Of a stretch of DNA of 64,000 nucleotides, positions 2,395 through 63,102 are shown in pieces. Every line of letters starts with the position of its first letter. Position 1 is the stretch's first letter. Source of the DNA: Thermoplasmatota archaeon (GTDB lineage Archaea; Thermoplasmatota; Thermoplasmata; UBA10834); NCBI GenBank assembly GCA_018814355.1, contig JAHIZT010000124.1, positions 479-64,478 of the forward strand, in the 5' to 3' direction. Below the pieces are notes generated by a model that saw only the letters and a program-made list of their open reading frames with translations, searched no databases and had not been told where the DNA came from. Position numbers and translations under genes: made by a program.

Positions 2395-2453
2395 GCTAAG
2401 ATGCGAAACCACACCAATTCCTCAGAACTCTCTTCTGATTCATCCAGGAGATC

Positions 2454-4978: not shown

Positions 4979-4991
4979 AGGTGGATCCGAC

Positions 4992-5642: not shown

Positions 5643-5661
5643 CCGCGCGGGCCGATGCTCT

Positions 5662-6174
5662 CTAGTTGATATAGCTGGCCGTGCTCGACCTGTCGAACCC
5701 TTTCACCAGTTCCAGCTGGTAATCTTCCTGAGGCTGCCAACCGTAGACCGGGTAGACGAGCTTCGGGACGAACCTTGAAAGGTCGGCTGCGAACTGCGTG
5801 ACCGGGTGGTCCTTGCCGAAGGTGGAGGCGCTTATCTCGTACGCCTTCGCCCTAGTGGCCGTCTCGTCGATTATCCCCAGCGTGTGAAGATACTCGTGCA
5901 GCAGTATGTGGAACACGTAAGGTTTGTACAGCGCGGGATCTGTCTCCTTTATCCGTCTCAGGGGGAGGCTGTTCATCACGATTATGTTGGTGGCGACCGG
6001 GTAGAACGCACCTACGAACCCCTGCGGCCCCCCGCCCAGGTTCGCAAGGCCGAGCATCAGCCCCGCCCTCTCCTTTCCAGTGCTTCTCCTGACCACGCTC
6101 TTCACAAGCTCGAAGATGTCCGTCAAATCCTTCGCGGACTTCAGTACCTCATCAACTGATGTCTCTGGTTTCAC
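5662..6174 (-). CDS. Putative minimal zinc metallopeptidase-like protein (HExxH motif: HILLHEYLHTLG)
   Basis: 170 aa with an HEYLH motif followed by GIIDE. Family assignment is uncertain and would need an HMM search. Confidence 0.4.
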   Translation of the reverse strand: MKPETSVDEVLKSAKDLTDIFELVKSVVRRSTGKERAGLMLGLANLGGGPQGFVGAFYPVATNIIVMNSLPLRRIKETDPALYKPYVFHILLHEYLHTLGIIDETATRAKAYEISASTFGKDHPVTQFAADLSRFVPKLVYPVYGWQPQEDYQLELVKGFDRSSTASYIN

Positions 6175-6276
6175 GGGTGACTATTGGGCGTTCGATGCTT
6201 ATAGACACATCGCCTGACAGACAGATGCCTATTGAAGGCGAGGTTTGGACAATGCTGAAATACCGACCAGGGCTCT

Positions 6277-7443: not shown

Positions 7444-8184
7444 CTTCGGGTATCTGCCCGGGTTGTCTAGGACGTAGAAATAGAGCGCTGCAAACGAGAG
7501 ACCACCGATGCTTCCCACGAGCACGGCCAGGGGCCATCTCGGTATGGGGATCTTGATCCCGAAGGAAGAGTCCGGAAGCAACCCGTCCACACCTATCGAC
7601 TTGAGGTAGGTCGTGTTCACAATCGGATCTCCGGACGAGAACGAGACAGCAGTGTTCCATTGTTCGTCCGTGAAGAAACCTCTTGACTTGAGCACCACCT
7701 GGGTACCGGTCGGGGAGCTGAACGTCAGATTGAACCGCACGAAGTACGTGCTCTGTGAAAAGTAGGAACCGTGTGGCGTCTTTCTGGAGGTTTCGATCGG
7801 GAGATCCACCCTTGTCGTCGTGTTCGCGCCTATTCTTGGTAGGAAGATCGAAAGTTGGATCGAGTCCCCTCTGATCAACGGAGGATGCGGAAAGGTCGAT
7901 GTGACATTCTCCGTCTTCTCCTGGGTCGAGTAGCGATATATGCCCACAACGAGCGTGAAATCGATCATCACCTCCGGTGAATCGTTATCGTAATAGGGGT
8001 TGGTGAAGTTGAACGAGAAGTCCACGGTCGTCCCCGGGGACACCACAGGCGTGATGAATCCGCTCAGGATGCTGTTAGCGTACTTCGGGCTGCCGGGGTT
8101 TGTGGGGAATTCGGCCGATGCGAGGCTCGTGCAGATCAGCAGTGCGGAAACAAGAGCCGTCGATGTGGCCAGCACGAGTCTCAT
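7375..8184 (-). CDS. Secreted/surface protein: signal peptide, beta-rich body with many N-glycosylation sequons, C-terminal TM anchor and basic tail
   Basis: N-terminus MRLVLATSTALVSALLICTSLASA. Sequons NFT, NDS, NVT, NTT and NLT. C-terminal hydrophobic helix PLAVLVGSIGGLSFAALYFYVL followed by a KR-rich tail. The 3' end overlaps the convergent GGR gene by 69 bp. Confidence 0.5.
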   Translation of the reverse strand: MRLVLATSTALVSALLICTSLASAEFPTNPGSPKYANSILSGFITPVVSPGTTVDFSFNFTNPYYDNDSPEVMIDFTLVVGIYRYSTQEKTENVTSTFPHPPLIRGDSIQLSIFLPRIGANTTTRVDLPIETSRKTPHGSYFSQSTYFVRFNLTFSSPTGTQVVLKSRGFFTDEQWNTAVSFSSGDPIVNTTYLKSIGVDGLLPDSSFGIKIPIPRWPLAVLVGSIGGLSFAALYFYVLDNPGRYPKLEQRFYYLRGKLRELRDKSEDR

Positions 8185-8281
8185 CCCTGCTGTGAAGTCT
8201 GAGACTGACTATATGACTTTCGGTCAGGCGGCTGGACGCTTTGCAGGAAGCGTTAATATCTGACCGGCCATTGCGAACAGT

Positions 8282-9310
8282 GTGCTGGCAGTAAGGGTAA
8301 GACGGTCAGAAGCAGAGTCCCTCAGGAAACGGCTTGCCAAGGATCATCTTGTGGACAAGACCAGGACGATCATCGACGATTCGGACGGCGTGGTCATTCC
8401 TCTCGTGGCTCTTCCGAGCGCATCCCTTCTGACGTCCTTCGATACCAGCATCGTGGAGAAGGATTTTCCCTCCAGGAGCTGCAGGATCGACCCCATCGTG
8501 AAGGTCCGCCAGGCAGCACAAATACCTGATGAGTTGAAACCCTTGCTCCCGAGCAAATGGGAGCGGTTCGGGGATATCGTTGTCATAAGGCTCGAGGCTG
8601 AGCTGGATGGCTACGAACACGAGATCGCCCAAGCGTATGCTGCCGTGCTCCAGCTCAAAACCGTTCTAAGGGACGTGGGAGGTATCTCGGGAGACCTGCG
8701 ACAGCCGGTCATAAGACGACTGTTCGGAACGGACACGGTCGCCACGCACCTGGAGAATGGGGTCCGCTACAGGTTCGATGCTGCTCAGATCATGTTCTCA
8801 TCCGGCAACACAGAGGAACGACAGCAGATGGCGGATCTGAAGTGCGATGGCGAGACCATTGTGGACATGTTCGCAGGCATCGGTTATTTCTCCCTCCCGC
8901 TCGCAGTGTACCAAAGGCCGAAGAAGGTCATCGCATGCGAGCTCAATCCACTAGCCTGCGGATATCTCGTGGAGAACATCTCGCTCAACGAAGTCCAGGG
9001 AAAGGTCGACCCCTTCCAGGGTGACAACAGAGATCTTCCAGGGGAGGCCTTTGCGGACAGGGTGATCATGGGTTACGTTAAGACCACGCATGAATTCCTT
9101 CCGAAGGCAATGACTATCTTGAAGGACGGCGGCATCATCCACTACCATGAGACCTGCCCCAACGCGCTCCTGCCGGAACGGCCGCTCCGGAGGCTGTCCG
9201 AGAGTGCGAAGGGGGGCAAGGTCGAGGTGCTCAGGATGAAGGAGATAAAATCATACGCACCGGGCGTCTCACATATCGTCGTTGACGCCAAGATAACTAG
9301 GCCTTCTTGA
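8282..9310 (+). CDS. trm5: tRNA (guanine37-N1)-methyltransferase Trm5 (or related Taw2/TYW2 class-I methyltransferase), with a GTG start
   Basis: SAM-binding motif I VDMFAGIGYFSLPLAVY, an acidic CELNP motif and a Met-10+ like architecture, ~340 aa. Confidence 0.75.
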   Translation: MLAVRVRRSEAESLRKRLAKDHLVDKTRTIIDDSDGVVIPLVALPSASLLTSFDTSIVEKDFPSRSCRIDPIVKVRQAAQIPDELKPLLPSKWERFGDIVVIRLEAELDGYEHEIAQAYAAVLQLKTVLRDVGGISGDLRQPVIRRLFGTDTVATHLENGVRYRFDAAQIMFSSGNTEERQQMADLKCDGETIVDMFAGIGYFSLPLAVYQRPKKVIACELNPLACGYLVENISLNEVQGKVDPFQGDNRDLPGEAFADRVIMGYVKTTHEFLPKAMTILKDGGIIHYHETCPNALLPERPLRRLSESAKGGKVEVLRMKEIKSYAPGVSHIVVDAKITRPS

Positions 9311-17657: not shown

Positions 17658-17718
17658 AGTTCTGAACACGCACTATTGGTTCTGTTGCGATATCGGGTGA
17701 TGACCCTTAGGTCACGTC

Positions 17719-18925
17719 TCAGATGCAACTCGTTCCATTCGGCTCCGACCGTGCGGCCATCGCTGGCTCGTATAGGATCATCATCACGTCATGCTGGAAC
17801 GCGCCGGGGTCGAACCGTAGACCCCCTGCCATCCCGTTGGAGATGGCTATCTGCAGCAGGTTGATGCTGGCATTGATGTGCCTGTCGAGGTGCCAGCCGC
17901 AATCACATACGAACTCTGTGCCCATTCGGGAATCTTGTATTCTCCCACATGCCGGGCACTTTCTGCTGCTATATCTTGGATCGACTTTGACGACAGGGAT
18001 ACCCTTCCACTGGGCCTTGTATTCGATGATCTGGTGTAGCTTCCTCCTCGGCCACAGGCTGAGGCGACGATTCATATCCTTGCCCCTTTTGTACCGGATT
18101 CCTATAAGGTCCTCGAGTACCACAACCGACCTCTTGCTCTCGGCAAACGAGAGCACGGCGTTTGCCACCTCATGAAGCCTGTGCTCGATCCGGTGGTGCT
18201 CTCTTGTGCCTTCCCGCCTACACAGGTTTCTAGCAGTCTGCCTGTCATGCGCCTTCTTCTTCTGCAGCCTTCTCCGCCTGTCGTGGTGCCGCTGCTGTAT
18301 GATGGCTACGTCAGGGAATTCCGCCTTGACCGTAACCGCTGCTTCAGAGTGGTTGCCGACGAACACGCCATCCAGGCTCCTTTCATTAGTATCTAGAGAA
18401 AGGACCGACTCGGGGATGTATGGTGCAGGGCACCCTTCCTGAAGGCTACTATGACCCGATCTGGAAGTATGGTCAGCGATCCGAGGGAGTGCGTGTTGTC
18501 ATCCAGGTACTTCCGATGATACTGGCTTACTACGAGATTCAATTTTACATGGCAACCCGCCCTTATGGGAAGGTCGATGGTTCCGGACTCACGATCGAGC
18601 TCTACGCCTGGTTCTCTGCTTTCATCATGAGGCGTTTGACATAGGGAACTTTGCACGCAACGCCTTTGCGAATGCGCCTGCGATGGGTCCTAAGAATGCC
18701 GCCAGCTACTTCGAACGCTGATACAAGATGCTGGGAGTACATCTTCGGATGTTCTTGGCGGAATTCCTTGTACGCGATTCTACACAAGGCGTTTCTCGAT
18801 GTCACTCTCGCCTGGAGGCCGGCTCGGATCGCATTGTTGACGGCCAATCTGAAATCCTCAAGCAGGGACTTCGCTTCCGATGGAAGGTCCGTGTCCAGTC
18901 GGAAGACGGCTCCCTTGATTAGCAT
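17719..18925 (-). pseudogene. tnpB: TnpB (IS200/IS605-family OrfB, RNA-guided nuclease-like) relic split into three reading frames by at least two frameshifts. No tnpA is present.
   Basis: Fragment 18602..18925 carries a TnpB N-terminus. Fragment 18393..18656 carries the central IDLPIRAGCHVKLNLVVSQYHRKYL. Fragment 17719..18366 carries the RuvC-like region plus zinc finger (VVVLEDLIGIR...RLSLWPRRKLHQIIEYKAQWKGIPVVKVDPRYSSRKCPACG...CDCGWHLDRHINASINL). Read in one orientation, this is a single ~400-aa protein broken by two shifts. Confidence 0.75.
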
Positions 18926-49887: not shown

Positions 49888-50298
49888 TCACTTGTCCTTT
49901 TCCTCTTCGAACTTGAGCGCTGCAGAGTTGATGCAGTATCTCTGTCCTGTCGGAGCTGGCCCGTCGTCGAACAGGTGTCCGAGGTGACTTCCGCATTTGC
50001 TGCACAGTACTTCGGTTCTTCTCATGAATAGACTCAAGTCGAGCTTGAACTCCATCTTCTCTTCGTCTTTGGGTGCGTAGAAGCTAGGCCAGCCGCAGCC
50101 TGCATCGAACTTCGTTTCGGATATGAAAAGCTCGTTTCCGCAGGCGGCGCACTTGTAGACCCCTTCCTTCTTGTTGTCCACATACTCACCAGTGAAGGGT
50201 CTCTCGGTCGCCTTCTGCCTTAGGACTCTGAATTGGTCTGGAGTCAATGTCTTCTTCCATTCCTCGTCGGTCTTCTTGATCTTGATCATCGTTGCCAA
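49888..50298 (-). CDS. msrB: Peptide methionine-R-sulfoxide reductase MsrB
   Basis: CAACGNELF...CGWPSF...[17 protein letters not shown], with the SelR zinc and catalytic Cys motifs. Confidence 0.9.
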
Positions 50299-50432
50299 GC
50301 CAGCGAGCTATGTAGTTTAATCATTTCCCCGATAGGCTGCGCCCTCGGAACAACTGTAGTCCTGATGGCCAGATCGAGCTCGATCCGATTCGTACGGTCC
50401 CAGCCATGATGACTGAGTCGGCCGCTCGGCCC

Positions 50433-50990
50433 TCAGTTCTTGTTCATCCCGAATTCCTCGTAGCTCAGGATCTCGTCCATCTTCTTCCTGTTGCGCGATC
50501 TCGCGACTTTCGCGGTGAGGTCCAGCTTCTCTCTAGTGTATCCGACCGCGAGCATGGCGACGATTCTGAGCTCCTCAGGAACCTTGAGAGCCTTCCTTAC
50601 CCTATTCTCGTAGAAGCTGCCTATCCAGCATGTGCCCAGACCTTCCGCAGTCGCAGCGATGACCATCTGCTGCATCGCGATCGTCACATCGATCACATTC
50701 CATCCAGGAGATTTCTTCTTGTTCCCGCACCCGACTATGACGACAGGTGATTCTGTGAGGAACTTCGCCCATTTCCCGTCCGATAGCGCCTTCCGCCTCT
50801 CAGGGTCTTTGACCACGATGAAATGCCACGGCTGTATGTTGGAGGCAGACGGAGCGATCCTTCCCGTCTCAAGTACCTTCATCAGGACATCGTCCGGCAC
50901 CGGCCGGGAATCATACGCTCTCACTGACCTTCTCCTCTCAATCGCCTCGAAGACTTCCAAATCTAACACACTCCTCAGCAGAGGCGGCAA
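50433..50990 (-). CDS. Nitroreductase family protein
   Basis: RRSVRAY...PSASNIQPWHFIVV, characteristic of the FMN-dependent nitroreductase fold. Confidence 0.8.
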   Translation of the reverse strand: MPPLLRSVLDLEVFEAIERRRSVRAYDSRPVPDDVLMKVLETGRIAPSASNIQPWHFIVVKDPERRKALSDGKWAKFLTESPVVIVGCGNKKKSPGWNVIDVTIAMQQMVIAATAEGLGTCWIGSFYENRVRKALKVPEELRIVAMLAVGYTREKLDLTAKVARSRNRKKMDEILSYEEFGMNKN

Positions 50991-51454
50991 TGAGCAAGGC
51001 CGCGCTTCTGCAGATATTGCTGATGATAATCCTCCGCCCGGTAAAACTCCTTTGCGGTCACGATTTCCGTAACGATGCGCTTCTTATTGAACCGGTCCGA
51101 GCTCTGGAGTTTGTCCCGGGAGGCTATGGCGGCTGTCTTCTGCTTTTCGTCATGGTAGAATATGGCTGACCTGTACTGCGAGCCGAAGTCGGGGCCCTGC
51201 CGGTTCGGTGTTGTGGGGTCGTGCGACTCCCAGAAGACCTTGAGCAGGTCCTCATATGACACCACTGATGGGTCGTATTCCACCTGCACGACCTCTGCAT
51301 GGCTCGTCTTGTCCGTGCACACTTCCTCGTAGGTTGGATTCCTTGTGGTCCCTCCTGTGTATCCAACGGTCGTCGACCTGACCCCGTTGACCTTTCGAAA
51401 AGCCTCTTCGACTCTCCAGAAACAGCCCGCTGCGAACGTGGCTCGCTCAGTCAT
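50975..51454 (-). CDS. msrA: Peptide methionine-S-sulfoxide reductase MsrA
   Basis: ATFAAGCFWRVEEAF (GCFWC-type active site) and GYTGG...TDKTSHAEVV. Confidence 0.9.
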   Translation of the reverse strand: MTERATFAAGCFWRVEEAFRKVNGVRSTTVGYTGGTTRNPTYEEVCTDKTSHAEVVQVEYDPSVVSYEDLLKVFWESHDPTTPNRQGPDFGSQYRSAIFYHDEKQKTAAIASRDKLQSSDRFNKKRIVTEIVTAKEFYRAEDYHQQYLQKRGLAHCRLC

Positions 51455-51773: not shown

Positions 51774-52544
51774 GTGGGGGACCATATGATAGAACCGAAA
51801 CGCGCGATTGTCCGTGAACCAGGGAAGAACTACACACAGTGCATTTCCTGTCATCGCTTGAGAGACACCATAGATATGGTTCTTGTCAGAGAGCAGCACG
51901 CCCGTTACAGAAAGACACTCACTGACCTGGGCCTGGAAATCATATCCGTCCCGCCGGACGACGGGCACGCGGATGCGTGCTTTGTGGAGGACAATGCTGT
52001 AGTCCACGGCAAGAAGTCGTTGATCTGCCGTATGGGGGCAGAGAGCAGGCGCGGAGAGGAGAGCGCTATCGAGGAGGTCCTGAAGCAGTATGTCAGAACG
52101 AAACGGGCGACGACTCCCGCGACTGTCGAAGGCGGGGATGTTGTGCACTTCAACGATCGGCTGCTTAGCGGTGTCAGCGAGCGAACGAACCAGGAAGGCG
52201 TTTCACAGATGAGAAAATGGCTCGAGGTCAGAGTTGATACGATTGTGGACCCCGGGATCATGCACCTGAAGAACTACGTTACGTCATTGGGCAGGGACAC
52301 GGTGATATCGACACAGAGATACGCCAAGCACGTCGCACTTAGGGATCTGTCTGCAATCATAGTCCCCGAGGACGAGGAGTACGCAGCCGACACGCTCACA
52401 GTCGGAGATACGGTGATCATGCCCGCGGGCCGCCCGCGTGCGCTGGAGCTAGTCTGCAAAGCTGGGTTCAAAGTCGTCTCAATGGACATGAGCGAATTCG
52501 AGAAATGCGGTGGAGCTTTGACATGCTTGTCGCTTCTTCTGTAG
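51774..52544 (+). CDS. Amidinotransferase-superfamily enzyme (dimethylarginine dimethylaminohydrolase / DDAH-like)
   Basis: C-terminal catalytic motif EFEKCGGALTCLSLL (the nucleophilic Cys is the penultimate conserved C), central His/Asp regions, ~250 aa. Confidence 0.7.
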   Translation: MGDHMIEPKRAIVREPGKNYTQCISCHRLRDTIDMVLVREQHARYRKTLTDLGLEIISVPPDDGHADACFVEDNAVVHGKKSLICRMGAESRRGEESAIEEVLKQYVRTKRATTPATVEGGDVVHFNDRLLSGVSERTNQEGVSQMRKWLEVRVDTIVDPGIMHLKNYVTSLGRDTVISTQRYAKHVALRDLSAIIVPEDEEYAADTLTVGDTVIMPAGRPRALELVCKAGFKVVSMDMSEFEKCGGALTCLSLLL

Positions 52545-52895: not shown

Positions 52896-54299
52896 TTGGC
52901 GTGGGAGGTGAGCGCGATGGTACAGATACTCGATGTCATGGAGAAGGCCTTGACAGGTCTGCCTCTGAGCGAAAACGACTACCAGCTCAGGAGGTTCGCC
53001 CCGAAGGTCCAGGAGAAAGTCAGGGAATTCAAGATCAGGTACGACCCAGAGAACCCGGTCCCGAGCGACAACTCCCTCGCGGACGATCTCTTCGAGGCCG
53101 GTTTGGAGCTGTTGGTTGATGTGGGCGCTTATTGCATAGACAGCGGTAGAGTGATCTCGTTCACCGAATCGGAGGTAAGGACCGCTCTCAGGAACGCTCC
53201 TGACAGACTCGAGATGGGCGAGGGTAAGGATAGGAAGACCTTCATGCCAAGGAAGATCGGGGACAGGACGAAGCCATGGTGCCTATTGGGCGCCGCCGGA
53301 GGAGCGGTCTCCGGTGATGAGGCGTTCGCGACTCTAATGGAAGGTTACGCTGAGATACCCGAGGTCGATGCCATCACGACGCCAGCCTTGACGCGCGTGG
53401 GCGGAATGAGGATCAGGCCGAGGTCTCCCCTTGAGGTTCTGGGCGCAATGAGGAGCGCAGCGCTGGGCCGGGAAGCGTGCAACAGAGCAGGCAGACAGGG
53501 CATTCCGTTCATGAACACTCTCTCCACAGCGGAATCCGCCATCGCTCTTGCGGCTGCGATGCATCCCAAGTACGGCCTGAGGCCATCGGACGGCTTCATG
53601 ATTGCGAGCATGGACCCGATGAAGATAGATTTCGACAGGCTGAACAAGGTCACGGTGGCCTTGTCGATGGGTGCTCCAATCGGCATGGATTTCGCCCCTC
53701 TCATGGGTGGATATTCAGGCGGACCCGAGGGGACTGCCGTCACGACCGTCGCGAGCCATATGATGGGCCTACTGACCCTTCAGACGAGCTATCTGATACC
53801 GTTCCCGCTACATCTGAAGTACGTCTCGAACAGCAGCAGGGACATGCTTTGGATCATAAGCGCGATGGGCCAGGCGATCAGCAGGAACACCCACCTGCTC
53901 AGCCTGAGCCTGAACTACACAGCTGCGGGTCCGGCCACGCCCATGGTCCTTCAGGAGACCTCGGCTTCTGCGATTTCGGCAGTAGCATCTGGGCTCTCAG
54001 TCGAGTCAGTAGGCGCGGCGCAGAACAAATACGAGGACAGGATGTCGCCTGTCGAGCCAAGAATCTCTGGCGAGGTGGCGCACGCAGTTGCGGGGATCAA
54101 GCTGCAAGAGGCAAATGAGATTGTCAAAAGCCTATTGAAGAAGTACGAGAAGAAGCTCCCGAATCCACCTCTGGGAAAGACGCTCTGGGAGTGCTGGGAT
54201 TCTGAGAAGCGGAGGCCCACCAAGGAGCATAGCGCGGTCGTGAGGAAGTTCAAGAAGGAGATGCTGGACCTAGGAGTGGAGCTGAGGCCTGAGGAATAG
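52896..54299 (+). CDS. Monomethylamine methyltransferase MtmB-family homolog lacking the pyrrolysine (UAG) codon
   Basis: Collinear similarity to MtmB: DDLFEAGLELLVDVGAYCIDSGRVISFTESEV vs EKLFKAGFEMLLECGIYCTDTHRIVKYTEDEI; MGGYSGGPEGTAVTTVASHM vs FGGYAGGIEETTIVDVATHI; and the C-terminal GKTLWECWD vs GKTFQECYD. At the Pyl position (AGRPGMGV-O-GPETSLS), this protein has AGRQGIPFMNTLS: a 3-aa deletion and no TAG. Confidence 0.75.
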   Translation: MAWEVSAMVQILDVMEKALTGLPLSENDYQLRRFAPKVQEKVREFKIRYDPENPVPSDNSLADDLFEAGLELLVDVGAYCIDSGRVISFTESEVRTALRNAPDRLEMGEGKDRKTFMPRKIGDRTKPWCLLGAAGGAVSGDEAFATLMEGYAEIPEVDAITTPALTRVGGMRIRPRSPLEVLGAMRSAALGREACNRAGRQGIPFMNTLSTAESAIALAAAMHPKYGLRPSDGFMIASMDPMKIDFDRLNKVTVALSMGAPIGMDFAPLMGGYSGGPEGTAVTTVASHMMGLLTLQTSYLIPFPLHLKYVSNSSRDMLWIISAMGQAISRNTHLLSLSLNYTAAGPATPMVLQETSASAISAVASGLSVESVGAAQNKYEDRMSPVEPRISGEVAHAVAGIKLQEANEIVKSLLKKYEKKLPNPPLGKTLWECWDSEKRRPTKEHSAVVRKFKKEMLDLGVELRPEE

Positions 54300-54314: not shown

Positions 54315-55268
54315 TCATGACGGTAGGCCAAGCGTCTCCATGTCGATGTTACCGCCCGAGATTACAACGGCCACCTTCTCTCCTTTTTCTAGCTTGATCT
54401 TCCCTTGCATTATCGCCGCCGGCCCGACCACAGCGGAACCTTCGACCACCTGACGCTCGTTCTTCAGCAGCCACAGAATCGCGCTTTTCAGCTTCTCCTC
54501 ATCAGCGAGAACGATGTCGTCGAACCACTTAAGGGCTAGATCTAGATTGAGCTGCGTTATGCCGCCTACCAGTCCCTCACAGATCGTCGGAGGTACAGGG
54601 ACCTCGACGAGCTTTCCTGCTCTGAAGCATTCGTGCAAAGTATGGGCAGCGGTCGACTGCGCCCCCACGATCCTGATTTTCGGATTGACGGTCTTTGCCC
54701 AGACTGCGGTGCCTGTAAGGAGACCCCCTCCCCCTACGGGACACAGGATGGTCTCGACATCAGGCAGGTCTTCGAGTATCTCGTGACCGACAGTCCCATG
54801 GCCGGCGAACACGTTGTAGTCATCTGTCCCGGACAAGTACGGCCTGCTGCTCTTCTTGGCCAGCTCCTGACAATACGTATACGCCTCATCGAAGTATCTG
54901 CCGTGTAGAACGATCTCGGCTCCGAGCGCCCTGCATCTCTCGACCTTGACTCTTGGAGTGTTTGCAGGAACGCATATCGTTGCCTTGATGCCAAGGTTCC
55001 TCGCCCCTAGTGCGACTCCTAGCGCCCAGTTGCCTGCGGAGGCGGTGACAACGCCTCCATTCCTCTCCTCGGGTGTAAGCAGACTCATCCTAAAGAGCGC
55101 TCCGCGGGGTTTGTACGATCCTGTCATCTGCAGGTTCTCCCACTTCAGATATATCTCGGCTCCGCTGATATCGCTCAGCGCCTTCGAGTGAGTCAGCGGG
55201 GTCCTGTTGACTAGGCCAGTCAAAACCCTCCTCGCCTTCAAGACGTCGACCGCTGTTGTGCTCACCAT
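54315..55268 (-). CDS. PLP-dependent threonine/serine dehydratase-like enzyme (tryptophan-synthase beta superfamily)
   Basis: PLP-Lys motif variant LQMTGSYKPRGALF (canonical SFKIRGA), a Gly-rich loop GGGGLLTG, 317 aa. Confidence 0.75.
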   Translation of the reverse strand: MVSTTAVDVLKARRVLTGLVNRTPLTHSKALSDISGAEIYLKWENLQMTGSYKPRGALFRMSLLTPEERNGGVVTASAGNWALGVALGARNLGIKATICVPANTPRVKVERCRALGAEIVLHGRYFDEAYTYCQELAKKSSRPYLSGTDDYNVFAGHGTVGHEILEDLPDVETILCPVGGGGLLTGTAVWAKTVNPKIRIVGAQSTAAHTLHECFRAGKLVEVPVPPTICEGLVGGITQLNLDLALKWFDDIVLADEEKLKSAILWLLKNERQVVEGSAVVGPAAIMQGKIKLEKGEKVAVVISGGNIDMETLGLPS

Positions 55269-55431
55269 TGCTCAACTCCGGACGGCTTCGATTCGTATCC
55301 AGCGCAGCCTGAAACGATACACGTTGTATTAACCTTTGAGATGGAAGCCAAAGAATACCTGTGACTAGAAACAGGACAAAAGAGGTTTGCGAAAATGGTT
55401 TGCTGGCCGGGAGCGTATCCCGGTCGTGCGC

Positions 55432-56205
55432 TCATCTCAAAGTTCCGCCGAACACCTGCCACGCGAGGGCGCTCTTTGCCGTGAGGCTTAGGATGATGTA
55501 CACTCTCTCGCCGAACAGGTAGTCCTTCCATCTGCCCTTTCCTCTGTACTGCAGGATCATGTTGATGGCGAAGATGTTGAAGAATATCGCGAGGGACACG
55601 AAGATGAAGTACACGAATGTCGGAACCGCATCTGACGCGGTCAGAAGCGCCCCAAAGAAGTACAGGCCCAGAACGATCCAGCATATGAGTCCCGCGAACG
55701 AACCGAAGATAAAAGCCGTCCAGTTGGTCTTTTTCGTTGTCTGGTTGTGTAGTTCCATCATGAGTCCGAACAGGTTCATGGTGGCGTTGAGCGCGAAGAT
55801 CAGTATGAGGCTCGAAAGCTCGTAGATGCCGCACAGGGCCGCGATGACCACTATCATGATGGATGAGCTGATGGCGTATTCGTACCATCTTGCATAGTTG
55901 ATGCCCCTCTTCAGATTCCGCACGTACCAAGAGTAACCGTACGTGGACACCGAGAAGTGAGCAATCGCGGAAACGAACAGAAACATGGCAATCATCGGTC
56001 CGAGTCTCAGGTTGATGATCGTGTTCGTCACCGTGGTGAAGGCCTGATTCACGGCGTCATAGCCAAGCAGGGTCTCTTTGACCGGCACCGAGTACTTGTT
56101 GCTCAACCAGAGCATCAAGCCACCTTGAAACAGGTGGAGAAACCCCATCACAAGGTTGAACCTCTTCAGCTTTTCGAACTTGACTTCTTCCGTTGCATCT
56201 GCCAT
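55432..56205 (-). CDS. Heliorhodopsin (7-TM retinal protein). The start is MADATEEVKFEKLKRFN, and there is a GAGGAG SD 9 nt upstream.
   Basis: Close collinear match to heliorhodopsin 48C12: FNLVMGFLHLFQ vs FNRIAGVFHLLQ; RWYEYAISSSIMIVVIAALCGI vs RWVEYSLSSSVMIVLIAQICGI (counterion Glu conserved); C-terminal RGERVYIILSLTAKSALAWQVFGG vs RGERAYIVLSLVAKSALAWQIFSG (Schiff-base Lys conserved). Seven hydrophobic segments. Confidence 0.85.
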   Translation of the reverse strand: MADATEEVKFEKLKRFNLVMGFLHLFQGGLMLWLSNKYSVPVKETLLGYDAVNQAFTTVTNTIINLRLGPMIAMFLFVSAIAHFSVSTYGYSWYVRNLKRGINYARWYEYAISSSIMIVVIAALCGIYELSSLILIFALNATMNLFGLMMELHNQTTKKTNWTAFIFGSFAGLICWIVLGLYFFGALLTASDAVPTFVYFIFVSLAIFFNIFAINMILQYRGKGRWKDYLFGERVYIILSLTAKSALAWQVFGGTLR

Positions 56206-56385
56206 ATTGCCACTCCTCAGCATCGAAACCTTCTGGTCGTTATTATGCCTTTCCCAAACGGCGTTCGATTGCCTCAACTTCAGGTGTTGCCTTAGTTCAT
56301 ATCCTCTTCATCGATTGGTGTGGCCATCTCGACGAAGCAAAGAATGTGGTAATGAATCGCCGATTACGCTTGGCATGTCATCTTC

Positions 56386-57225
56386 TTGGACCGTGGTTCT
56401 CAGATCCGAGAATATCCACCGCTAGCTTTTATATGGGCGCAACAGATAATTCGTTGGCTAGGACAGATGGCAAAGAGAGTTTCGTATTTCATCAGAACCG
56501 AAGGGCCCGACAGGGGAGCCGTCAAGAAAGCCTTGGAATGGCTCCTACAGGTCTCACCAGCGAAGGGTTTCGTAGCGGTACCTGGGCTTAGGAACCTAGA
56601 CGGTGTGCTGGCAGAGGAGCTCGGACCATCAGCCGTTAAGGACTTGAAGACAAAGGGTAAAGCCATCGTATCGGGCAGAGAGCTGTATGTGATAACGAGG
56701 CTCAAACCGGTCCGTAGCGCTGACAATGCTGCCATCGTGGCATTCTATCCTTACGGGCGGATGCTAGATGTCCTGGACGCCATCAGGGATATCTCGGCCA
56801 TACTTATCGTCCCTTGGTCGATGCAGGAGATCGATCATTGGGTAAGTACGTGGAACGCGAAGGAACTCGGGAGCCGGAAGAGGTCCAAGAAGGCGGACCA
56901 TGTCAGCAACCGGGTTGTTGAGGAGGCATTGAGGGACATCTCGGATCGAGTCAACGTGCCCACAGGAATGGAGCACCAGATCGACAGGGACTTGATCATT
57001 CAGGCGCTGCTAATACTCAAGAAGGGCGGCGAGGAGTTCACGCCATCTTCTCTGAAGTCCTGGTTTGTGGCCAATGGAGGATGGAAGGCGACCCACGCTC
57101 AGGAAGTCGCTGAGGCCGCGGCTGAGGTTCTCGAGGGCAAGAGAGTCAATCGGGGGAAGTCAGCTTGGCCAGACGATATCTTGCAGAAATGGCGTGCAAG
57201 GAGTGCCGATGCGAAGACTGGGTAA
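56386..57225 (+). CDS. Hypothetical protein (about 250-279 aa) immediately downstream of, and divergent from, the heliorhodopsin gene
   Basis: Long ORF with good coding bias and no motif recognised. The start is possibly the internal MAKRVSYFIRTEGPD. Confidence 0.45.
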   Translation: MDRGSQIREYPPLAFIWAQQIIRWLGQMAKRVSYFIRTEGPDRGAVKKALEWLLQVSPAKGFVAVPGLRNLDGVLAEELGPSAVKDLKTKGKAIVSGRELYVITRLKPVRSADNAAIVAFYPYGRMLDVLDAIRDISAILIVPWSMQEIDHWVSTWNAKELGSRKRSKKADHVSNRVVEEALRDISDRVNVPTGMEHQIDRDLIIQALLILKKGGEEFTPSSLKSWFVANGGWKATHAQEVAEAAAEVLEGKRVNRGKSAWPDDILQKWRARSADAKTG

Positions 57226-57410: not shown

Positions 57411-58999
57411 ATGGGGGTCTGTTCCCTTTTATCTACACGTAGGACGTTTTCTTTAGTCGGAGGGTCGGTCGCTCGGCCCGGATCCTCCAAGAAAGGAGAT
57501 GCGAACTTGGTCTCTGGGAAGAGCATGGTGAGGATTCTTGACAAGAGCGATCTGGAAGCGGTCCACGGAGCCACAATGAGAGTCCTGGACGATGTTGGAG
57601 TGAAGATCGATTCCCCCGAAACCCTCGACCTCCTAGTGAAGAACGGGTTCGAGGTCGACAGGAAGTCCAAGATCGTGAGAATGCCGGAGTCAAAAGTCAT
57701 GGAAGCAGTCAATAGCTGCAGAAAGAACTTCAAATGGCACGCTCGCAACGAGAAGCATTCTATCGACTTTGTGGACGGAAGGACCAAGTTCGGTCCTGGA
57801 GCGCAGTGCCTGTACTACATCAACCTGATACCGAGCGCGTGAGGGCGGCCACTCTTCAGGATGGCATCAGTATCTGCAGACTCTTGGACGCGCTCGACTC
57901 GTCTGCCCTGGGCTACATCCCTGTGTATCCGAGCGATGTCCCCGTCCCAGCAATGAGCGTCGTCATGTGGGCCGCGGGCCTCGTGAACTCATCCAAACCT
58001 GCCTTTGGCGGCGGGGGAGGTGAATCCGAGTTCGAGTTGATGTTGCGGATCGCAGACATATTCCTAGGGGACCGGGAGCTTCTGAGGACGAAGCCGATGT
58101 TCCCCGGATACATCGACCCGATAAGTCCGCTCGGACACGATCAGGGAATGCTCGAGACGCTCCTCCGGTACTCCGAATGGGATCTTCCGATGTTCATAAT
58201 GGTCATGGCCCTTGCCGGCGGGACAGCTCCCGCATCTCTTGCCGGTCTTCTAGTGCAGCAGAACGCAGAGATCCTGAGCTCAGCAGTGATAGCCAAGTGC
58301 GTCACGAAGGCTCCAAAGATCGTCTACGGCTCTGTATCCTGCCCTCTGGACATGAGGTCGGGCATTGCGTCGACGGGCTCTCCTGAGTTCTCTCTCATAG
58401 GCGTCGGATCCGTCCAGATGGCCAAGTTCTACGGGCTTCCGAGCGACATTGGGGTTCAGAGCGATTCGAAGACTGTGGACGCACAGACATCCTATGAGAA
58501 GATGCAGGCCGCGCTGATGGCGACCATGTCCGGTGCCGATTTCGCAGAGCTTTTCCTCGGCTCGACCGAGACCTTCAACGCATATTCGCTGGTCCAGCTC
58601 ATGATCGATGACGAGATAGCCTCATATGTCCAGCGGATCTCCGACGGGATCGAGGTCAATGAAGAGACGTTGTCAGTGGACGTTATCGCAAAGACGGGCC
58701 CTCTCGGGAACTACCTGAAGCACCCTAGGACCATGAAGCAGTTCAAACGGGAGCATTCGCAGGCGAGGCTCTCTGATAGGACCACCAGACGACACTGGAC
58801 CGCTGGCGGAGCCAAGGATGTCAAGGAACGTGCAAGGGAGCGCGCGGCTAACCTGTTGAGATCTCATACGCCTGACCCACTCGAGCCAGATATGAAGAAG
58901 AGCCTGAATGGCCTGATCAGGGAGTACACCAAGGACTACGATGTGGACAAGCTTGGCGGCTCAAGTCCCCAGGCCAGGTCAGAATCGTCCTGCTCTTGA
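57411..58999 (+). pseudogene. MttB-superfamily (trimethylamine methyltransferase-like) homolog, non-pyrrolysine, split by a -1/+2 frameshift near 57828-57842
   Basis: Frame-0 part: ILDKSDLEAVHGATMRVLDDVGVKIDSPETLDLLVKNGFEV...IVRMPESKVMEAV matches the MttB N-terminus. Frame-2 continuation RVRAATLQDG...GSVQMAKFYGLPSDIGVQSDSK aligns with MttB [16 protein letters not shown] but has CAG (Gln) where MttB has TAG (Pyl). The two ORFs are offset by 323 nt. Confidence 0.7.
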
Positions 59000-61044: not shown

Positions 61045-61395
61045 TCAAAACAAAGTATCATCTTTGATAACCACCTTGCCGTTTCTCATGGGGACGCCCT
61101 CGCTCTCAACGTGTTCCCTCCTGCTAGCTGCTGCCCTCTCTTCTCCCCCGAACCCTCCATCGGACTTGACAACACGCCAACAAGGCACTATTGGGTAGAG
61201 CGGGTTGTTATGCAGCGTATTTGCGACAGCCCTCATGGCCTTTGGTTTTCCGATTTTCTTGGCGATTCTCTGATATGTGCAAACCTTTCCGTAGGGGATC
61301 TCGTATGTCGCCATGTAGACCGCCATCTCGAACTCCGACCATTCACTCAGGTACTGGACTACGTCCTGCTTTGTCTTCACATCTTCCTTTCGCAC
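61045..61395 (-). CDS. MGMT-family (O6-alkylguanine-DNA alkyltransferase C-terminal DNA-binding domain) protein with a variant active-site PCWR in place of PCHR
   Basis: IPYGKVCTYQRIAKKIG.PKAMRAVANTLHNNPLYPIVPCWRVVKSDGGFGG matches the alkyltransferase HTH and active-site region. Only 116 aa, with no N-terminal domain. Confidence 0.6.
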   Translation of the reverse strand: MRKEDVKTKQDVVQYLSEWSEFEMAVYMATYEIPYGKVCTYQRIAKKIGKPKAMRAVANTLHNNPLYPIVPCWRVVKSDGGFGGEERAAASRREHVESEGVPMRNGKVVIKDDTLF

Positions 61396-61542: not shown

Positions 61543-63102
61543 TCATGGTCGTTGAGCCAATTCCTTCTCTCTCTTCCGGATAATCTCGTTTCCCTGTTGG
61601 ATTATTGACCTATCCAGCGCTGGCACGACATGGTCCTTCAGTAGCCTGATAGCAATCTCCCTCGCCTCTGCCACCATCGCCTTCGACATCGTTGCCTCGA
61701 ACCGCCCCTTCTCTGGGTCCCTCATCACGATCTCCTTCCTGAAGTTCCTCATTGTGTGCATGCTCGTTAGGAAAGTGTTTCCGTGGCCTACCTGCCTTGT
61801 GACATCGAGGGCTACGGTCTCCTTGCTGATCTCGAACGGAGTCATCTGTTTCTTCACGTTCTCCCAAACATACGCGTCGATGACCTCCTGTTCTAGGGCG
61901 ACTCCCTTGGCGTGGTCGAGCGCGCCGATTCCTCCCTGCATGTCCGTGCCGGACATGGTGCTAAGTGCTATCCCCATGGTCTCGGTGAACGTGTGCGGGA
62001 TCCCGGGTTCCTCTGAATCGTTCAACCCCCAGTCCCCCACCATGCACGGCAGCCCGTATCTCTTGGCCATCTGTGCCAATCCAGCCGCTATGAGCGGCTG
62101 GTTCACGCTTTCGTAGTTGATCATGCCCGTCTTCATGTTCACAGGGGTGGATGAAGAGCAGTAGATGGTGCGCGCGCCCTTGGCCGCGGCTTGGCCGATG
62201 ACCAAGCTCGCTAGGTTCTCCGAGTTTGCATTGACAAGCGTGCCCGCCATTGTGACGGGCGCTGTCCCGCCTGAGAGCGACATGGTCATGGTGGTAACGG
62301 ACACTCCTGCTTTGGCGAACTCCACGAGCGCTTCGACGGCGTCATGTTCGAACATCAATGGGGCGATGGAACAGTGGATCACCGTGAAGTATGGCTTCTT
62401 CTTGAGCTCGTCTAATCCTCCAGCGATCAAAGCTCCCAGCTCGATCTGTTTCCTGGCATCCTCAGCGTTGAATATCTCTACTCCCTGGACGTGCTTGGTC
62501 GTGTTCTGGAACGCTGTCCAGAGTTCGTGCAGTCCGTGTGTTGCATGAGGGACTTCAGTGGCCGTGAGGTTCGTCTGGACATAGTCCGCCCCCGTCAGCG
62601 CATCCCCGAGCCTGACGGTGTCGGCTATGTCCTTGACTGTGGAATCGCGCTTCTTGCCCGTCTGTATGTCCAGGATATACGTGCCCAAGCCAGTGGTGCC
62701 AACGTAGGGCCATGAGCTGACTGGGATCCTAAGGTCGTTCTTCGGATCCCTCGCGTGAAGTGTCATGCTCTTCGGGACTGTTTTCAATGCTTCCCTGACA
62801 AAGCCCTCAGGGATTCTCGCAATCTGATTCTTGTAATCGACCTGCGCTCCAGCTTTGTCCAGCATTCGAAGGACGCTCTCGCTCTTCACCTTCACACCGA
62901 TGGTCTCAAGGCATTCCATGCTCTGCTGGTCGATCAGATCTTCTTCGCCCTTGTCCAGGAACTTCAAACGCGCTACTGCCACTTGAACACCTCCTAAGCA
63001 AGCTCGCTTAGCTCGTCGCCACCCCGAAGCGGAAGAATATGAAAAGGATTTCCCTCCTCGGCCGTCGCAATCCAGACGATTCTCGTTCTTCTGATGTCGC
63101 AT
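61543..63102 (-). CDS. MttB-superfamily (trimethylamine methyltransferase-like) homolog lacking pyrrolysine. The N-terminal ~40 aa of the listed ORF may be upstream of the real start.
   Basis: VAVARLKFLDKGEEDLIDQQSMECLETIGVKVKSESVLRMLDKAGAQV...IPEGFVREALKTVPKSMTLHARDP matches the MttB N-terminal half. Near the Pyl position it has AKRYGLPCMVGDWGLNDSEEPG (MttB: [25 protein letters not shown]), with no TAG. Confidence 0.8.
   Translation of the reverse strand: MRHQKNENRLDCDGRGGKSFSYSSASGWRRAKRACLGGVQVAVARLKFLDKGEEDLIDQQSMECLETIGVKVKSESVLRMLDKAGAQVDYKNQIARIPEGFVREALKTVPKSMTLHARDPKNDLRIPVSSWPYVGTTGLGTYILDIQTGKKRDSTVKDIADTVRLGDALTGADYVQTNLTATEVPHATHGLHELWTAFQNTTKHVQGVEIFNAEDARKQIELGALIAGGLDELKKKPYFTVIHCSIAPLMFEHDAVEALVEFAKAGVSVTTMTMSLSGGTAPVTMAGTLVNANSENLASLVIGQAAAKGARTIYCSSSTPVNMKTGMINYESVNQPLIAAGLAQMAKRYGLPCMVGDWGLNDSEEPGIPHTFTETMGIALSTMSGTDMQGGIGALDHAKGVALEQEVIDAYVWENVKKQMTPFEISKETVALDVTRQVGHGNTFLTSMHTMRNFRKEIVMRDPEKGRFEATMSKAMVAEAREIAIRLLKDHVVPALDRSIIQQGNEIIRKREKELAQRP

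Follow-up and report, generated by a model that had tools for sequence, protein, structure and literature searches.

The window (the whole 64-kb stretch of Thermoplasmatota DNA analyzed here) carries a gene for heliorhodopsin (HeR), a membrane protein that senses light; the gene is genuine, intact and canonical, an ordinary TaHeR-type member of a well-studied family. The reading preferred here (probability of about 0.8) is that this HeR occupies a chromosomal site conserved within its clade, that its neighbors represent lineage-specific insertions and inherited synteny, and that a SOUL-family gene is the sole recurring operon-like neighbor. A partner that is robustly conserved would be of great help in understanding archaeal HeR function; the locus in the window supplies none. 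The appearance of a gene embedded among methyltransferases, from which the initial annotation had drawn a co-localization hypothesis, dissolves when related genomes are compared, and what is left is a regional synteny with an MtmB-like gene that is restricted to one clade, together with the already published HeR–SOUL and oxidative-stress themes. The outcome is negative but useful: the gene is a standard TaHeR-type HeR, and phylogenetic correction is required where HeR function is argued from neighboring genes. The features of the locus are:

49888..51454, minus strand: MsrB–nitroreductase–MsrA cluster, part of the chromosomal block found with HeR throughout the clade
51786..52544, plus strand: DDAH/amidinotransferase-fold gene (dimethylargininase-like) that precedes the MtmB-like gene on its strand, all NCBIfam matches below cut-offs
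52896/52917..54299, plus strand: non-pyrrolysine MtmB homolog, convergent with the HeR/PALP pair (Pfam MtmB, 318 bits)
54315..55268, minus strand: PLP-dependent serine/threonine dehydratase-family enzyme (PALP; Pfam PALP, 255 bits)
55325..55340, minus strand: invariant box CTCAAAGGTTAATACA, 57 nt upstream of the PALP ATG
55432..56205, minus strand: HeR coding sequence
56240..56255, minus strand: BRE/TATA-like box GGGAAAGGCATAATAA, 35–50 nt upstream of the HeR ATG
56467..57225, plus strand: divergently transcribed DUF1889-like gene (252 aa)
57507..58999, plus strand: non-pyrrolysine MttB-superfamily gene, frameshifted and read as the open reading frames 57411..57842 and 57734..58999
61543..63102, minus strand: second non-pyrrolysine MttB-superfamily gene (519 aa; Pfam MTTB, 226 bits)

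Identity and predicted mode of action of the heliorhodopsin

The HeR gene is an uninterrupted open reading frame that encodes 257 amino acids followed by a stop, so the product length of 258 given previously counts the stop codon. The protein matches the Pfam heliorhodopsin model PF18761 (E = 4.6e-96, 321.3 bits, cut-off 26.7) over profile positions 1–242 of 242 and the NCBIfam equivalog NF038020 “heliorhodopsin HeR” (340.7 bits, cut-off 100), in both cases above the curated cut-off. Alignment with TaHeR (PDB 6is6) shows 54% identity over 248 aligned residues (E = 7e-83), and the collinearity with the prototype HeR 48C12 that had been proposed holds over the full length (E = 7e-56). The AF2 model (pLDDT 80.9) contains seven TM helices (residues 10–34, 67–84, 103–123, 129–156, 161–187, 196–219, and 225–252) and a beta-hairpin in ECL1 (strands 38–49 and 54–66); the hydropathy profile displays six hydrophobic blocks, one of which (107–150) covers both TM3 and TM4. 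Foldseek aligns the model to 6IS6 with TM-scores of 0.87/0.89 and an rmsd of 2.6 Å, and the best matches are all HeR structures. The N-terminus and the loops that follow TM2, TM4, and TM6 together contain 15 Lys and Arg residues, against 3 in the remaining loops and the C-terminus, which by the positive-inside rule points to the inverted topology with a cytoplasmic N-terminus that is expected of a HeR.

The two functional residues named in the initial annotation were recovered at their aligned positions. The TM3 counterion E109 (RWYEYAISSS) aligns with E108 of TaHeR (RWFEYSISAS), a column that contains D in the E108D mutant entry 7clj, and the TM7 retinal lysine K244 (SLTAKSALAW) aligns with the Lys of TaHeR in SLVAKSALAW. 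K244 is invariant across 21 homologs, and E109 is invariant as well. Conservation extends to the pocket, to H24 and H83, and to the hydrophobic extracellular-half residues Y110, M117, F209, and F212. The gene evolves with a dN/dS of 0.05–0.11 against its orthologs. None of the signs that would speak against a HeR (no match to the family models, fewer than seven TM helices, a missing Lys or Glu) was found.

The window belongs to an archaeal chromosome, as had been stated, and contains genes for eIF-1A, Pus10, L21e, L15e, Rpb4, and a family-B DNA polymerase. A neighbor-joining tree sets the HeR within a clade that consists of Thermoplasmata only, whereas TaHeR, from Thermoplasmatales archaeon SG8-52-1 (PDB 6IS6, 7U55, and 7CLJ), groups outside this clade with Hadarchaeota and Thermoplasmatales sequences. 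The two proteins share the family, the fold, and the phylum Thermoplasmatota; in both, the counterion Glu, the Schiff-base Lys, and the two conserved His residues are present, as are the hydrophobic extracellular half and the beta-hairpin in ECL1. They differ in sub-clade and in the TM5–TM6 region, which is five residues longer in the window HeR. TaHeR has been crystallized (6IS6). The prototype actinobacterial HeR 48C12 (PDB 6SU3 and 6UH3) is more distant (~42% identity, TM-score 0.80–0.82), resides in a bacterial host, and has an unrelated gene neighborhood.

By homology, the HeR would be a seven-helix protein with the N-terminus inside, in which Lys244 would bind retinal and Glu109 would serve as the counterion. 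Light would isomerize the retinal and produce a long-lived photointermediate, probably with no ion being pumped, as in the prokaryotic HeRs, and the positively charged intracellular loops may then relay the signal to a partner in the cytoplasm. The TM6–TM7 loop (RGKGRWKDYLFGER) contains five Lys/Arg residues, and HeRs have been found to bind and regulate neighboring enzymes through Lys residues in the intracellular loops (PMC9529153; PMC11109279). The statement that HeRs have no settled function is partly outdated, as bacterial HeRs have been shown to regulate an adjacent glutamine synthetase, photolyase, or ABC transporter (PMC9529153, PMC9769723, PMC11109279). Large surveys of HeR neighbors have also been published (PMC8612252; bioRxiv 10.1101/2021.02.16.431466).

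It is highly improbable that the protein is instead a light-driven or light-gated ion transporter, as a viral HeR is reported to be, or a light harvester with a carotenoid antenna. The viral V2HeR3 is reported to transport protons (cited in PMC12873467), and F165, G172, F209, N210, and A213 of the window HeR match the proposed carotenoid fenestration. However, the characterized prokaryotic HeRs pump no ions (PMC9529153, PMC11109279), the residues that close the extracellular half of TaHeR (Y109, M116, F203, and F206) are kept as Y110, M117, F209, and F212, and the support for the antenna idea so far comes from a preprint that compared structures and used docking and bioinformatics. Genes for retinal or carotenoid biosynthesis were absent from the Pfam labels covering 14–64 kb of the window.

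The dehydratase-like and DUF1889-like neighbors

A total of ~95 HeR loci, with ~10 kb on each side, were compared with the 64 kb of the source genome. According to the locus matrix, the PALP gene, the DUF1889-like gene, and MttB are present only where HeR identity is at least 91%, which comprises three lineages (window/L001/L002, L083/L084, and L086/L087). At 81–82% identity, a co-directional SOUL gene lies at +46 bp from HeR and MtmB at +589 bp in convergent orientation; loci at 72–75% vary in their arrangement; and at 68% or less none of these genes is found nearby. The methyltransferases, the dehydratase, and the unknown gene had together been put forward as a clue to HeR function. This is weakly supported: the PALP gene, the DUF1889-like gene, and both MttB homologs flank HeR only in the source lineage and two close relatives (HeR identity 91–93%) and are gone at 81–82%, and the MtmB-like gene persists near HeR in one clade.

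The PLP threonine-dehydratase-like gene noted beside HeR was confirmed as a PALP-family gene. It is the next gene downstream of HeR, co-directional with it, and encodes 317 amino acids that contain the catalytic domain only. The best NCBIfam match is the threonine ammonia-lyase TIGR01127 (324 bits over model positions 1–291 of 380, below the cut-off of 378.75), and the 17 dehydratase-family models listed all fall short of their cut-offs, so that an assignment to the threonine ammonia-lyases (IlvA/TdcB) is not supported. Judged from its sequence, the most fitting description is a PLP enzyme of the serine/threonine dehydratase family.

Two promoter-like elements flank the HeR gene. The GGGAAAGGCATAATAA box is nearly invariant in three species at a synonymous divergence of ~0.6 and is accompanied by a conserved GGAG 8–11 nt upstream of the HeR ATG; it is a putative archaeal promoter of HeR itself. 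The CTCAAAGGTTAATACA box lies within the 163-bp HeR–PALP spacer, is identical at all 16 nt in the window, L083, and L086, and may represent a separate promoter for the PALP gene. A strong oligo-T terminator conserved among the lineages with the pair was not found in the spacer, and read-through transcription from HeR into PALP may therefore occur.

HeR and the PALP enzyme might form a functional pair in which HeR binds the enzyme and modulates it by light, much as AbHeR does with glutamine synthetase. Wherever the pair occurs, in three lineages, the two genes are co-directional with a gap of 161–167 bp; purifying selection acts on the PALP gene (dN/dS 0.08–0.13), and there is precedent for HeRs that regulate adjacent soluble enzymes via basic intracellular loops (PMC9529153). 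Such a pair is nevertheless unlikely: it is restricted to HeR identities of at least 91%, the same slot is taken by SOUL at 81–82%, and PALP is not among the ten recurrent HeR operon partners of PMC11109279. In L086 the PALP gene lies between HeR and SOUL, suggesting a recent insertion, and the invariant TATA-like box in the spacer suggests that PALP has an independent promoter; for these two reasons the operon reading was down-weighted. The AbHeR–glutamine synthetase, TfHeR–photolyase, and OcHeR–ABC transporter systems (PMC9529153, PMC9769723, PMC11109279) are non-pumping and have basic intracellular loops, as predicted for the window HeR, which makes light-dependent regulation through protein–protein contacts plausible, but none of their partner genes lies beside the window HeR. 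Compared with an operon of the AbHeR–glutamine synthetase type, the PALP gene is 163 bp away behind its own promoter-like box and does not form a tight operon, and the MtmB, MttB, and DUF1889-like genes are neither co-directional with nor adjacent to HeR.

The unknown protein on the other side of HeR, described as divergently transcribed from 56386, is a real gene, but its start is most likely the ATG at 56467 rather than the TTG at 56386, because the public annotation begins there and a conserved TATA-like box lies ~40 nt upstream. A precomputed match to DUF1889 (PF08986) exists, while searches of the current Pfam (E ≤ 0.1), NCBIfam, PADLOC, and PDB sequences gave no match. The family is rare (20 homologs found). 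The distant homologs are not beside HeR: one is located with MtmB and MttB, and another with a DUF87-domain protein, a SNF2 helicase, and many hypothetical genes. As these more distant homologs occur without a HeR alongside, the protein was rejected as a HeR partner.

Methyltransferase homologs

The block had been said to contain three methylamine-methyltransferase homologs. All three are homologs, but the absence of an in-frame amber codon from each indicates non-pyrrolysine homologs and not methylamine methyltransferases proper, and one of them is split by a 1-nt deletion. The MtmB homolog is a continuous open reading frame and aligns with Methanosarcina barkeri MtmB (1l2q, E = 1.4e-70) with Met in the column of Pyl202, and it has no NCBIfam family match at E ≤ 0.01. 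The MttB homologs score 318–360 bits against TIGR02369 (cut-off 525) and contain no in-frame TAG; the second scores 360 bits against the NCBIfam model trimeth_pyl (cut-off 525), and its PDB relatives include glycine betaine methyltransferases.

In the split MttB gene, comparison with intact orthologs of 488 aa places the 1-nt deletion near 57821. Repair of the frameshift yields a clean open reading frame of 491 codons without further stops and with a dN/dS of 0.11–0.15, similar to the intact orthologs, so that an old pseudogenization was rejected and the lesion is either very recent or an assembly error. A Logan assembly (L002), possibly built from the same reads, shows the deletion as well.

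Pyrrolysine-dependent methylamine methyltransferases have an in-frame UAG at the active site and an adjacent cognate corrinoid protein, and the window homologs have neither. A tblastn search of the 64-kb window with the corrinoid protein of L094 found nothing (best E = 0.54), and the precomputed Pfam labels for 14–64 kb of the window include no B12-binding domain. The homologs lack the amber codon and score below the cut-offs for pyrrolysine enzymes, in line with the non-pyrrolysine quaternary-amine enzymes MtqB (tetramethylammonium/choline, PMC13044021) and MtgB (glycine betaine, PDB 2QNE/9YCE); the window differs from these systems in that it has no corrinoid-protein gene and one frameshifted copy.

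An MtmB-like gene lies ~0.6–10 kb from HeR throughout one Thermoplasmata clade (HeR identity of at least 72%) and within ~10 kb in 10–11 of the clade's 12 loci that have sufficient flanks, on varying sides and at varying distances. It is never co-directional with HeR: it either lies kilobases from HeR or is encoded on the other strand, and it belongs to a larger block of synteny. Of the neighbors that the initial annotation proposed to check in related genomes, the MtmB-like gene recurs near orthologous HeRs within this clade, and MttB and PALP do so at HeR identities of at least 91%. Most methyltransferase neighbors are recent lineage-specific arrangements and inherited synteny rather than a conserved HeR functional module, and the co-localization idea is partly supported. 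The persistence of the MtmB-like gene near HeR could reflect selection rather than inertia.

A functional coupling of HeR to corrinoid-dependent methyl transfer by the MtmB/MttB homologs, for example with HeR as a switch that responds to light by regulating or protecting the photolabile methyl-corrinoid chemistry, would fit with the MtmB-like gene lying 0.6–6 kb from HeR in the window, L083, L086, L092, L003, L004, L006, L007, L094, and L095 (and ~10 kb in L008) despite rearrangements that switch its side. At L094, L006, and L007, the gene is paired with a B12-binding corrinoid protein ~3 kb from HeR, and cobalamin-binding proteins are among the recurrent HeR neighbors in a published survey (bioRxiv 10.1101/2021.02.16.431466). 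The coupling is quite unlikely, however, as the MtmB-like gene is neither co-directional with nor immediately adjacent to HeR at any locus, is absent from L093, and is confined to a single clade: a scan of 80 species found it missing from all loci at or below 68% HeR identity, including all Methanomassiliicoccales and bacterial HeR loci. MttB adjoins HeR at identities of at least 91% only, and the 16.8 kb recovered at L096 contain an MtmB ortholog (76%) beside a DUF1889-like gene and an MttB, but no HeR. The missing corrinoid-protein gene and the frameshifted MttB in the window also argue against it. Among the results listed by the literature search, no paper ties HeR to MtmB, MttB, or corrinoid methyltransferases, and MtmB and MTTB do not appear in the available part of the HeR neighbor table of Chazan et al. 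A more specific version, in which the HeR of this clade would be a light sensor for corrinoid-dependent quaternary-amine demethylation that signals to a non-pyrrolysine MtmB-like (MtqB-like) system with a photolabile methyl-cobalamin intermediate, is very unlikely; if true, it would explain why the MtmB-like gene is kept within a few kilobases of HeR through local rearrangements.

SOUL and oxidative-stress genes

HeR adjoins a block of genes encoding MsrA, a nitroreductase, MsrB, SRAP, an S9 peptidase, a TauE-family protein, and an aldehyde:ferredoxin oxidoreductase (AFOR). The backbone of this block (the Msr, nitroreductase, S9 peptidase, TauE, and AFOR genes) is common to the window, L095, and L004. 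The GC content is flat (0.52–0.59) over 44–64 kb and thus shows no island signature, and the only tRNA gene is at 12.2 kb; a horizontally acquired island was rejected.

A role of HeR in the response to photo-oxidative damage, with light sensing that tunes MsrA, MsrB, nitroreductase, SRAP, and SOUL, is possible but rather doubtful. Across the clade, MsrA, MsrB, and nitroreductase genes are located within 2.5–7 kb of HeR, and at L008 the MsrB, SRAP, nitroreductase, HeR, and MsrA genes are contiguous on one strand. MsrA directly adjoins HeR in the Thermoleophilia bacterium L030, SOUL is adjacent to HeR in several lineages, and a link to oxidative stress has been proposed (PMC8612252). Within the clade, however, the association may be plain synteny, and the Beja-lab survey places the same oxidative-stress families beside proton-pumping rhodopsins of the same taxa (bioRxiv 10.1101/2021.02.16.431466), so that these neighbors are not specific to HeR.

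The preferred reading of a canonical HeR at a clade-conserved site leaves the SOUL-family gene as the only operon-like HeR neighbor that recurs independently, in an association that is already published; the gene is missing from the window. SOUL is co-directional with and adjacent to HeR at L003, L004, L092, L095, and L086, and likewise, though on the other side of HeR, at L010 and in the Anaerolineales bacterium L077. The Thermoplasmata fosmid HULAa36F11 carries a HeR with an adjoining gene for a SOUL heme-binding domain, and oxidative-stress genes are a theme of the published neighbor surveys (bioRxiv 10.1101/2021.02.16.431466; PMC8612252). Relatives of the window HeR at 74–91% identity have the same HeR–SOUL arrangement, whereas in the window SOUL has been lost and the PALP gene occupies its slot. 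In the source lineage, PALP was probably inserted between HeR and SOUL, after which SOUL would have been lost. The arrangements HeR–SOUL, HeR–PALP–SOUL, and HeR–PALP represent three closely related natural variants in which potential HeR partners can be tested.

Identity, fold and phylogenetic placement of the heliorhodopsin

Family membership, key residues, fold, topology bias and purifying selection were established for the product of the heliorhodopsin (HeR) gene (55432..56205, minus strand). The ORF comprises 257 residues and a stop codon; the initial annotation had placed it correctly but gave the product as 258 aa. Its identification as a heliorhodopsin collinear with the prototype was borne out by the Pfam Heliorhodopsin model PF18761 (321 bits, E = 4.6e-96, whole model covered), by the NCBIfam equivalog NF038020 "heliorhodopsin HeR" (340.7 bits, cut-off 100) and by the solved structures, among which the best match was the HeR of Thermoplasmatales archaeon SG8-52-1 (TaHeR, 6is6, E = 7e-83; 54% identity over 248 aligned residues), followed by the actinobacterial prototype 48C12 (E ~7e-56). 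TaHeR is the closest characterised protein, and the NCBI equivalog model NF038020 would name the window HeR automatically. The proposed TM3 counterion in RWYEYAISSS is E109 in the protein's own numbering and aligns with the E108 column of TaHeR (RWFEYSISAS; D in the E108D mutant entry 7clj), and the proposed retinal lysine of TM7 in SLTAKSALAW is K244, aligned with the retinal Lys of TaHeR (SLVAKSALAW). The conserved histidines H24 and H83 are both kept. Furthermore, Y110, M117, F209 and F212 correspond to the hydrophobic residues that seal the extracellular half in TaHeR, which argues against ion pumping; a role in ion transport or as a carotenoid antenna, ranked fourth among the candidate functions, is considered highly improbable.

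An AlphaFold2 model (21 homologues, pLDDT 80.9) contains seven long helices, which agree with the hydrophobic segments from hydropathy, and, linking TM1 to TM2, a hairpin of two strands like that seen in the solved HeR structures. A Foldseek comparison of the model with the PDB returned only HeR structures at the top (6IS6, TM 0.87/0.89, rmsd 2.6 A; 48C12, TM ~0.81), with type-1 rhodopsins far lower. The N-terminus and the loops after TM2, TM4 and TM6 carry 15 K/R against 3 elsewhere, a distribution that fits the inverted, N-terminus-inside topology. With a HeR model match, seven helices and the aligned Lys and Glu all found, the initial identification holds. Strong purifying selection acts on the gene, with dN/dS of 0.05-0.11 in comparisons with three orthologues (dS 0.56-1.17). 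By analogy with characterised HeRs, the protein would bind retinal at K244, undergo a slow photocycle, pump no ions and pass its signal via its basic cytoplasmic loops. The TM6-TM7 loop (RGKGRWKDYLFGER) contains five K/R; in AbHeR, which regulates glutamine synthetase, the equivalent lysines bind that enzyme (PMC9529153).

At least 7,475 database proteins match the window HeR at E<1e-20, the closest being 96% identical, and both MAG GCA_043817215.1, on its 85.8-kb contig JBDRHC010000036.1, and a Logan assembly of SRR2544004 encode an identical protein. Among genomes scanned at species level, the closest 14 HeRs (66-82% identity) came from Thermoplasmata/Thermoplasmatota-labelled MAGs, except one labelled Methanobacteriota archaeon; next were HeRs of Hadarchaeota, Candidate Phyla Radiation (CPR; Patescibacteria), Chloroflexota and Methanomassiliicoccales (55-64%). 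A neighbour-joining tree without bootstraps places the window HeR among archaeal HeRs inside a Thermoplasmata-only clade, with a second Thermoplasmata clade as sister and TaHeR further out. It is an ordinary archaeal HeR, a new yet unremarkable member of the family. Archaeal housekeeping genes (eIF-1A, RIO1, Pus10, L21e, L15e, Rpb4, family-B DNA polymerase) lie elsewhere in the window; a TnpB/Cas12f1-like_TNB domain protein among housekeeping genes (~17718..18542, minus strand; 274 aa in public annotation) is probably an IS200/IS605-type remnant.

Gene layout and regulatory signals

The HeR gene lies between a dehydratase-like PLP enzyme (PALP) downstream and a divergent unknown gene upstream, as initially described.

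Genes around the window HeR, from upstream to downstream
61543..63102, minus (strand of HeR): second MttB homologue, 519 aa, ~5.3 kb upstream of HeR
61045..61395, minus: MGMT-like DNA-binding-domain protein, 116 aa
Upstream, minus: CehA/McbA-type PHP metallohydrolase
57507..58999, opposite strand to HeR: MttB homologue over two frames
56467..57225, plus, divergent from HeR: unknown DUF1889-like protein, 252 aa
55432..56205, minus: HeR, followed by a 163-bp spacer
54315..55268, minus: PALP-family enzyme, 317 aa
51786..54299, convergent with HeR and PALP: DDAH-like (dimethylargininase-fold) gene, then MtmB homologue on the same strand
Further downstream, minus: MsrA, nitroreductase, MsrB
Beyond the Msr genes: M28 peptidase, MFS transporter, S9 peptidase, TauE, aldehyde:ferredoxin oxidoreductase

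Neither a corrinoid-protein gene nor a SOUL heme-binding-family gene was found in the 64-kb window. The MGMT-domain protein, situated between the PHP/CehA-type metallohydrolase and the second MttB, consists of the DNA-binding domain alone, with PCWRV where methyltransferases have PCHRV, and may be an alkyltransferase-like variant.

In three species with a synonymous divergence of ~0.6, the HeR ATG is preceded at 35-50 nt by a GGGAAAGGCATAATAA box that hardly varies, with a conserved GGAG ahead of the ATG; a CTCAAAGGTTAATACA box located 57 nt before the PALP ATG is invariant. The two boxes resemble archaeal BRE/TATA elements and would provide separate putative promoters for HeR and PALP. The HeR-PALP spacer has no conserved strong oligo-T terminator, so read-through transcription may occur. 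About 100 nt upstream of the DUF1889-like gene (56370..56466), including a TTTTATATGG box ~40 nt before the ATG at 56467, are conserved about as well as coding sequence in the three species and could hold a promoter and regulator sites; this argues for a start at 56467 and not at 56386.

Conservation of the neighbourhood across HeR loci

Two sets of HeR loci, 80 in species-representative genomes and 15 of metagenomic or MAG origin picked by HeR identity, were searched with every window protein, and all flanking ORFs were also clustered without prior assumptions.

Neighbours by identity to the window HeR (L numbers are comparison loci)
At least 91% (window, L083, L086): DUF1889-like divergent at ~-180 bp; MttB at -1.4 to -1.5 kb; PALP at +165 bp; MtmB at +1.1 to +1.7 kb; second MttB at ~-5 kb in the window and L083 (L086 shows one MttB before the contig end)
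81-82% (L092, L003, L004, the last the same locus as L088): PALP, DUF1889-like and MttB all absent; SOUL 46 bp after HeR, same strand; MtmB convergent at +589 bp
72-75%: L095, SOUL at +356 bp, MtmB 5.9 kb away on the opposite side of HeR; L094, L006 and L007, DDAH divergent at -160 bp, corrinoid protein at -3.1 kb, MtmB at -3.7 kb; L008 (8016..11368), MsrB, SRAP, nitroreductase, HeR and MsrA contiguous on one strand; L093, MtmB absent
At most 68% (further Thermoplasmata clade, Methanomassiliicoccales, Hadarchaeota, Chloroflexota, CPR, Actinomycetota): these genes not with HeR, except SOUL in L010 and the Anaerolineales bacterium L077 and MsrA or MsrB in two bacteria

The proposed co-localisation with methyltransferase and dehydratase genes therefore survives in part: an MtmB-like gene is kept near HeR through one Thermoplasmata clade (L093 excepted), but PALP, the DUF1889-like gene and MttB accompany HeR only at 91% identity or more, and none of the methyltransferase or dehydratase genes does so at 68% or less. 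MttB, PALP and the unknown protein joined the HeR flank recently. Nitroreductase, MsrB and S9 peptidase are also kept in much of the clade, and TauE and aldehyde:ferredoxin oxidoreductase in some loci, which makes the MtmB signal inseparable from inherited regional synteny; MtmB was never in an operon-like placement relative to HeR in the loci compared. No report of a clade-restricted proximity of HeR to an MtmB without pyrrolysine (non-Pyl) was found in the searchable part of the literature, and this proximity is a weakly supported, minor lead. The most widespread HeR neighbour family, apparently an ABC ATPase, occurs in at most 13 loci among the 80 species.

A 16.8-kb locus of GCA_052744255.1 (L096; genes at 2048..8783) carries an orthologous MtmB, which at 76% identity is as near to the window copy as the L004 one. 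Alongside it are a DUF1889-like gene (56%), a further MttB, an MFS gene and saccharopine dehydrogenase, and the locus contains no HeR, so the methyltransferase/DUF1889 module is also found apart from HeR. A search of 5.8 billion proteins yielded 20 homologues of this rare DUF1889-like family, and a more distant member (L097) is surrounded by many hypothetical genes, a DUF87-domain protein and an SNF2 helicase.

In Methanomassiliicoccales, each of the six HeR genes (L043, L045, L046, L055, L058, L066) is followed after 30-41 bp by a convergent gene of ~500 aa with an ACT domain (with a weak threonine-dehydratase C-terminal-like match) and a metallo-beta-lactamase domain, a different, clade-specific neighbour. 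Two 81-82% relatives have small zinc-ribbon ORFs ahead of HeR (L088, 9597..9824, 177 bp upstream; L092, 962..1189, ~7 kb upstream), whereas the window HeR has none; these ORFs recall the Znf-HeR fusions reported in Thermoplasmatales (PMC8612252).

Candidate partners of the heliorhodopsin

The SOUL gene, of Pfam family PF04832, is the sole neighbour that is co-directional, closely spaced and in independent arrangements with HeR. It adjoins HeR in L003, L004/L088, L092, L095, L086, L010 and L077 (Thermoplasmata and one Anaerolineales) in two gene orders, downstream of HeR in four loci and upstream in two, and also in a bacterium. The HeR-SOUL association, a Thermoplasmata fosmid included, was published by Chazan et al. 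(bioRxiv 10.1101/2021.02.16.431466), and Thermoplasmata HeRs, the occurrence of SOUL and oxidative-stress genes beside them, and neighbour statistics on a large scale are likewise on record (PMC8612252; bioRxiv 10.1101/2021.02.16.431466; PMC11109279). The oxidative-stress theme of the literature is matched by the L008 block and by a Thermoleophilia bacterium in which 23 bp separate the end of MsrA (L030, 9514..9978) from HeR. For the window HeR, the highest-ranked role, at about one chance in four, is one in photo-oxidative stress or of the SOUL type that was inherited from the clade.

The orders HeR-SOUL (L004), HeR-PALP-SOUL (L086) and HeR-PALP (window, L083) suggest that PALP was inserted and SOUL lost afterwards in the window lineage. 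PALP as a lineage-specific partner, second in rank, is unlikely. The gene follows HeR on the same strand and has its own putative promoter. The enzyme falls below every threonine/serine dehydratase cut-off among the models displayed and lacks a C-terminal regulatory domain.

Three methylamine-methyltransferase homologues had been noted around HeR; one MtmB and two MttB homologues are present, but none is a pyrrolysine enzyme and one MttB is frameshifted. The MtmB has Met at the column of M. barkeri MtmB Pyl202, and both MttB homologues lack a TAG interruption and score well under the Pyl-MttB cut-off; glycine betaine methyltransferases are among their solved relatives. The split MttB differs from intact 488-aa orthologues in L083 and L086 by a single-base deletion near 57821 (ATC-GAA to ATC-AA), shared by a second assembly (L002). 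Once repaired, the ORF (57507..58999) has no other defects and a dN/dS of 0.11-0.15, which points either to a frameshift of very recent date or to a sequencing error. A corrinoid methyltransferase system as partner ranks third and is slightly less likely than PALP; MtmB persists near HeR in the clade, and no corrinoid partner for the window copy lies within 64 kb. The idea that HeR senses light in connection with photolabile corrinoid methyl transfer is slightly less likely again.

In L094 (2958..4984) and L006/L007 (4887..7093), a B12-binding corrinoid protein takes the place of DDAH before the MtmB orthologue, with a 4-bp overlap in L006 and L007 and a 5-bp gap in L094. A DDAH or corrinoid gene before MtmB may point to the breakdown of methylated nitrogen compounds; tetramethylammonium/choline demethylation was the first function demonstrated for an MtmB of the non-Pyl type (PMC13044021).
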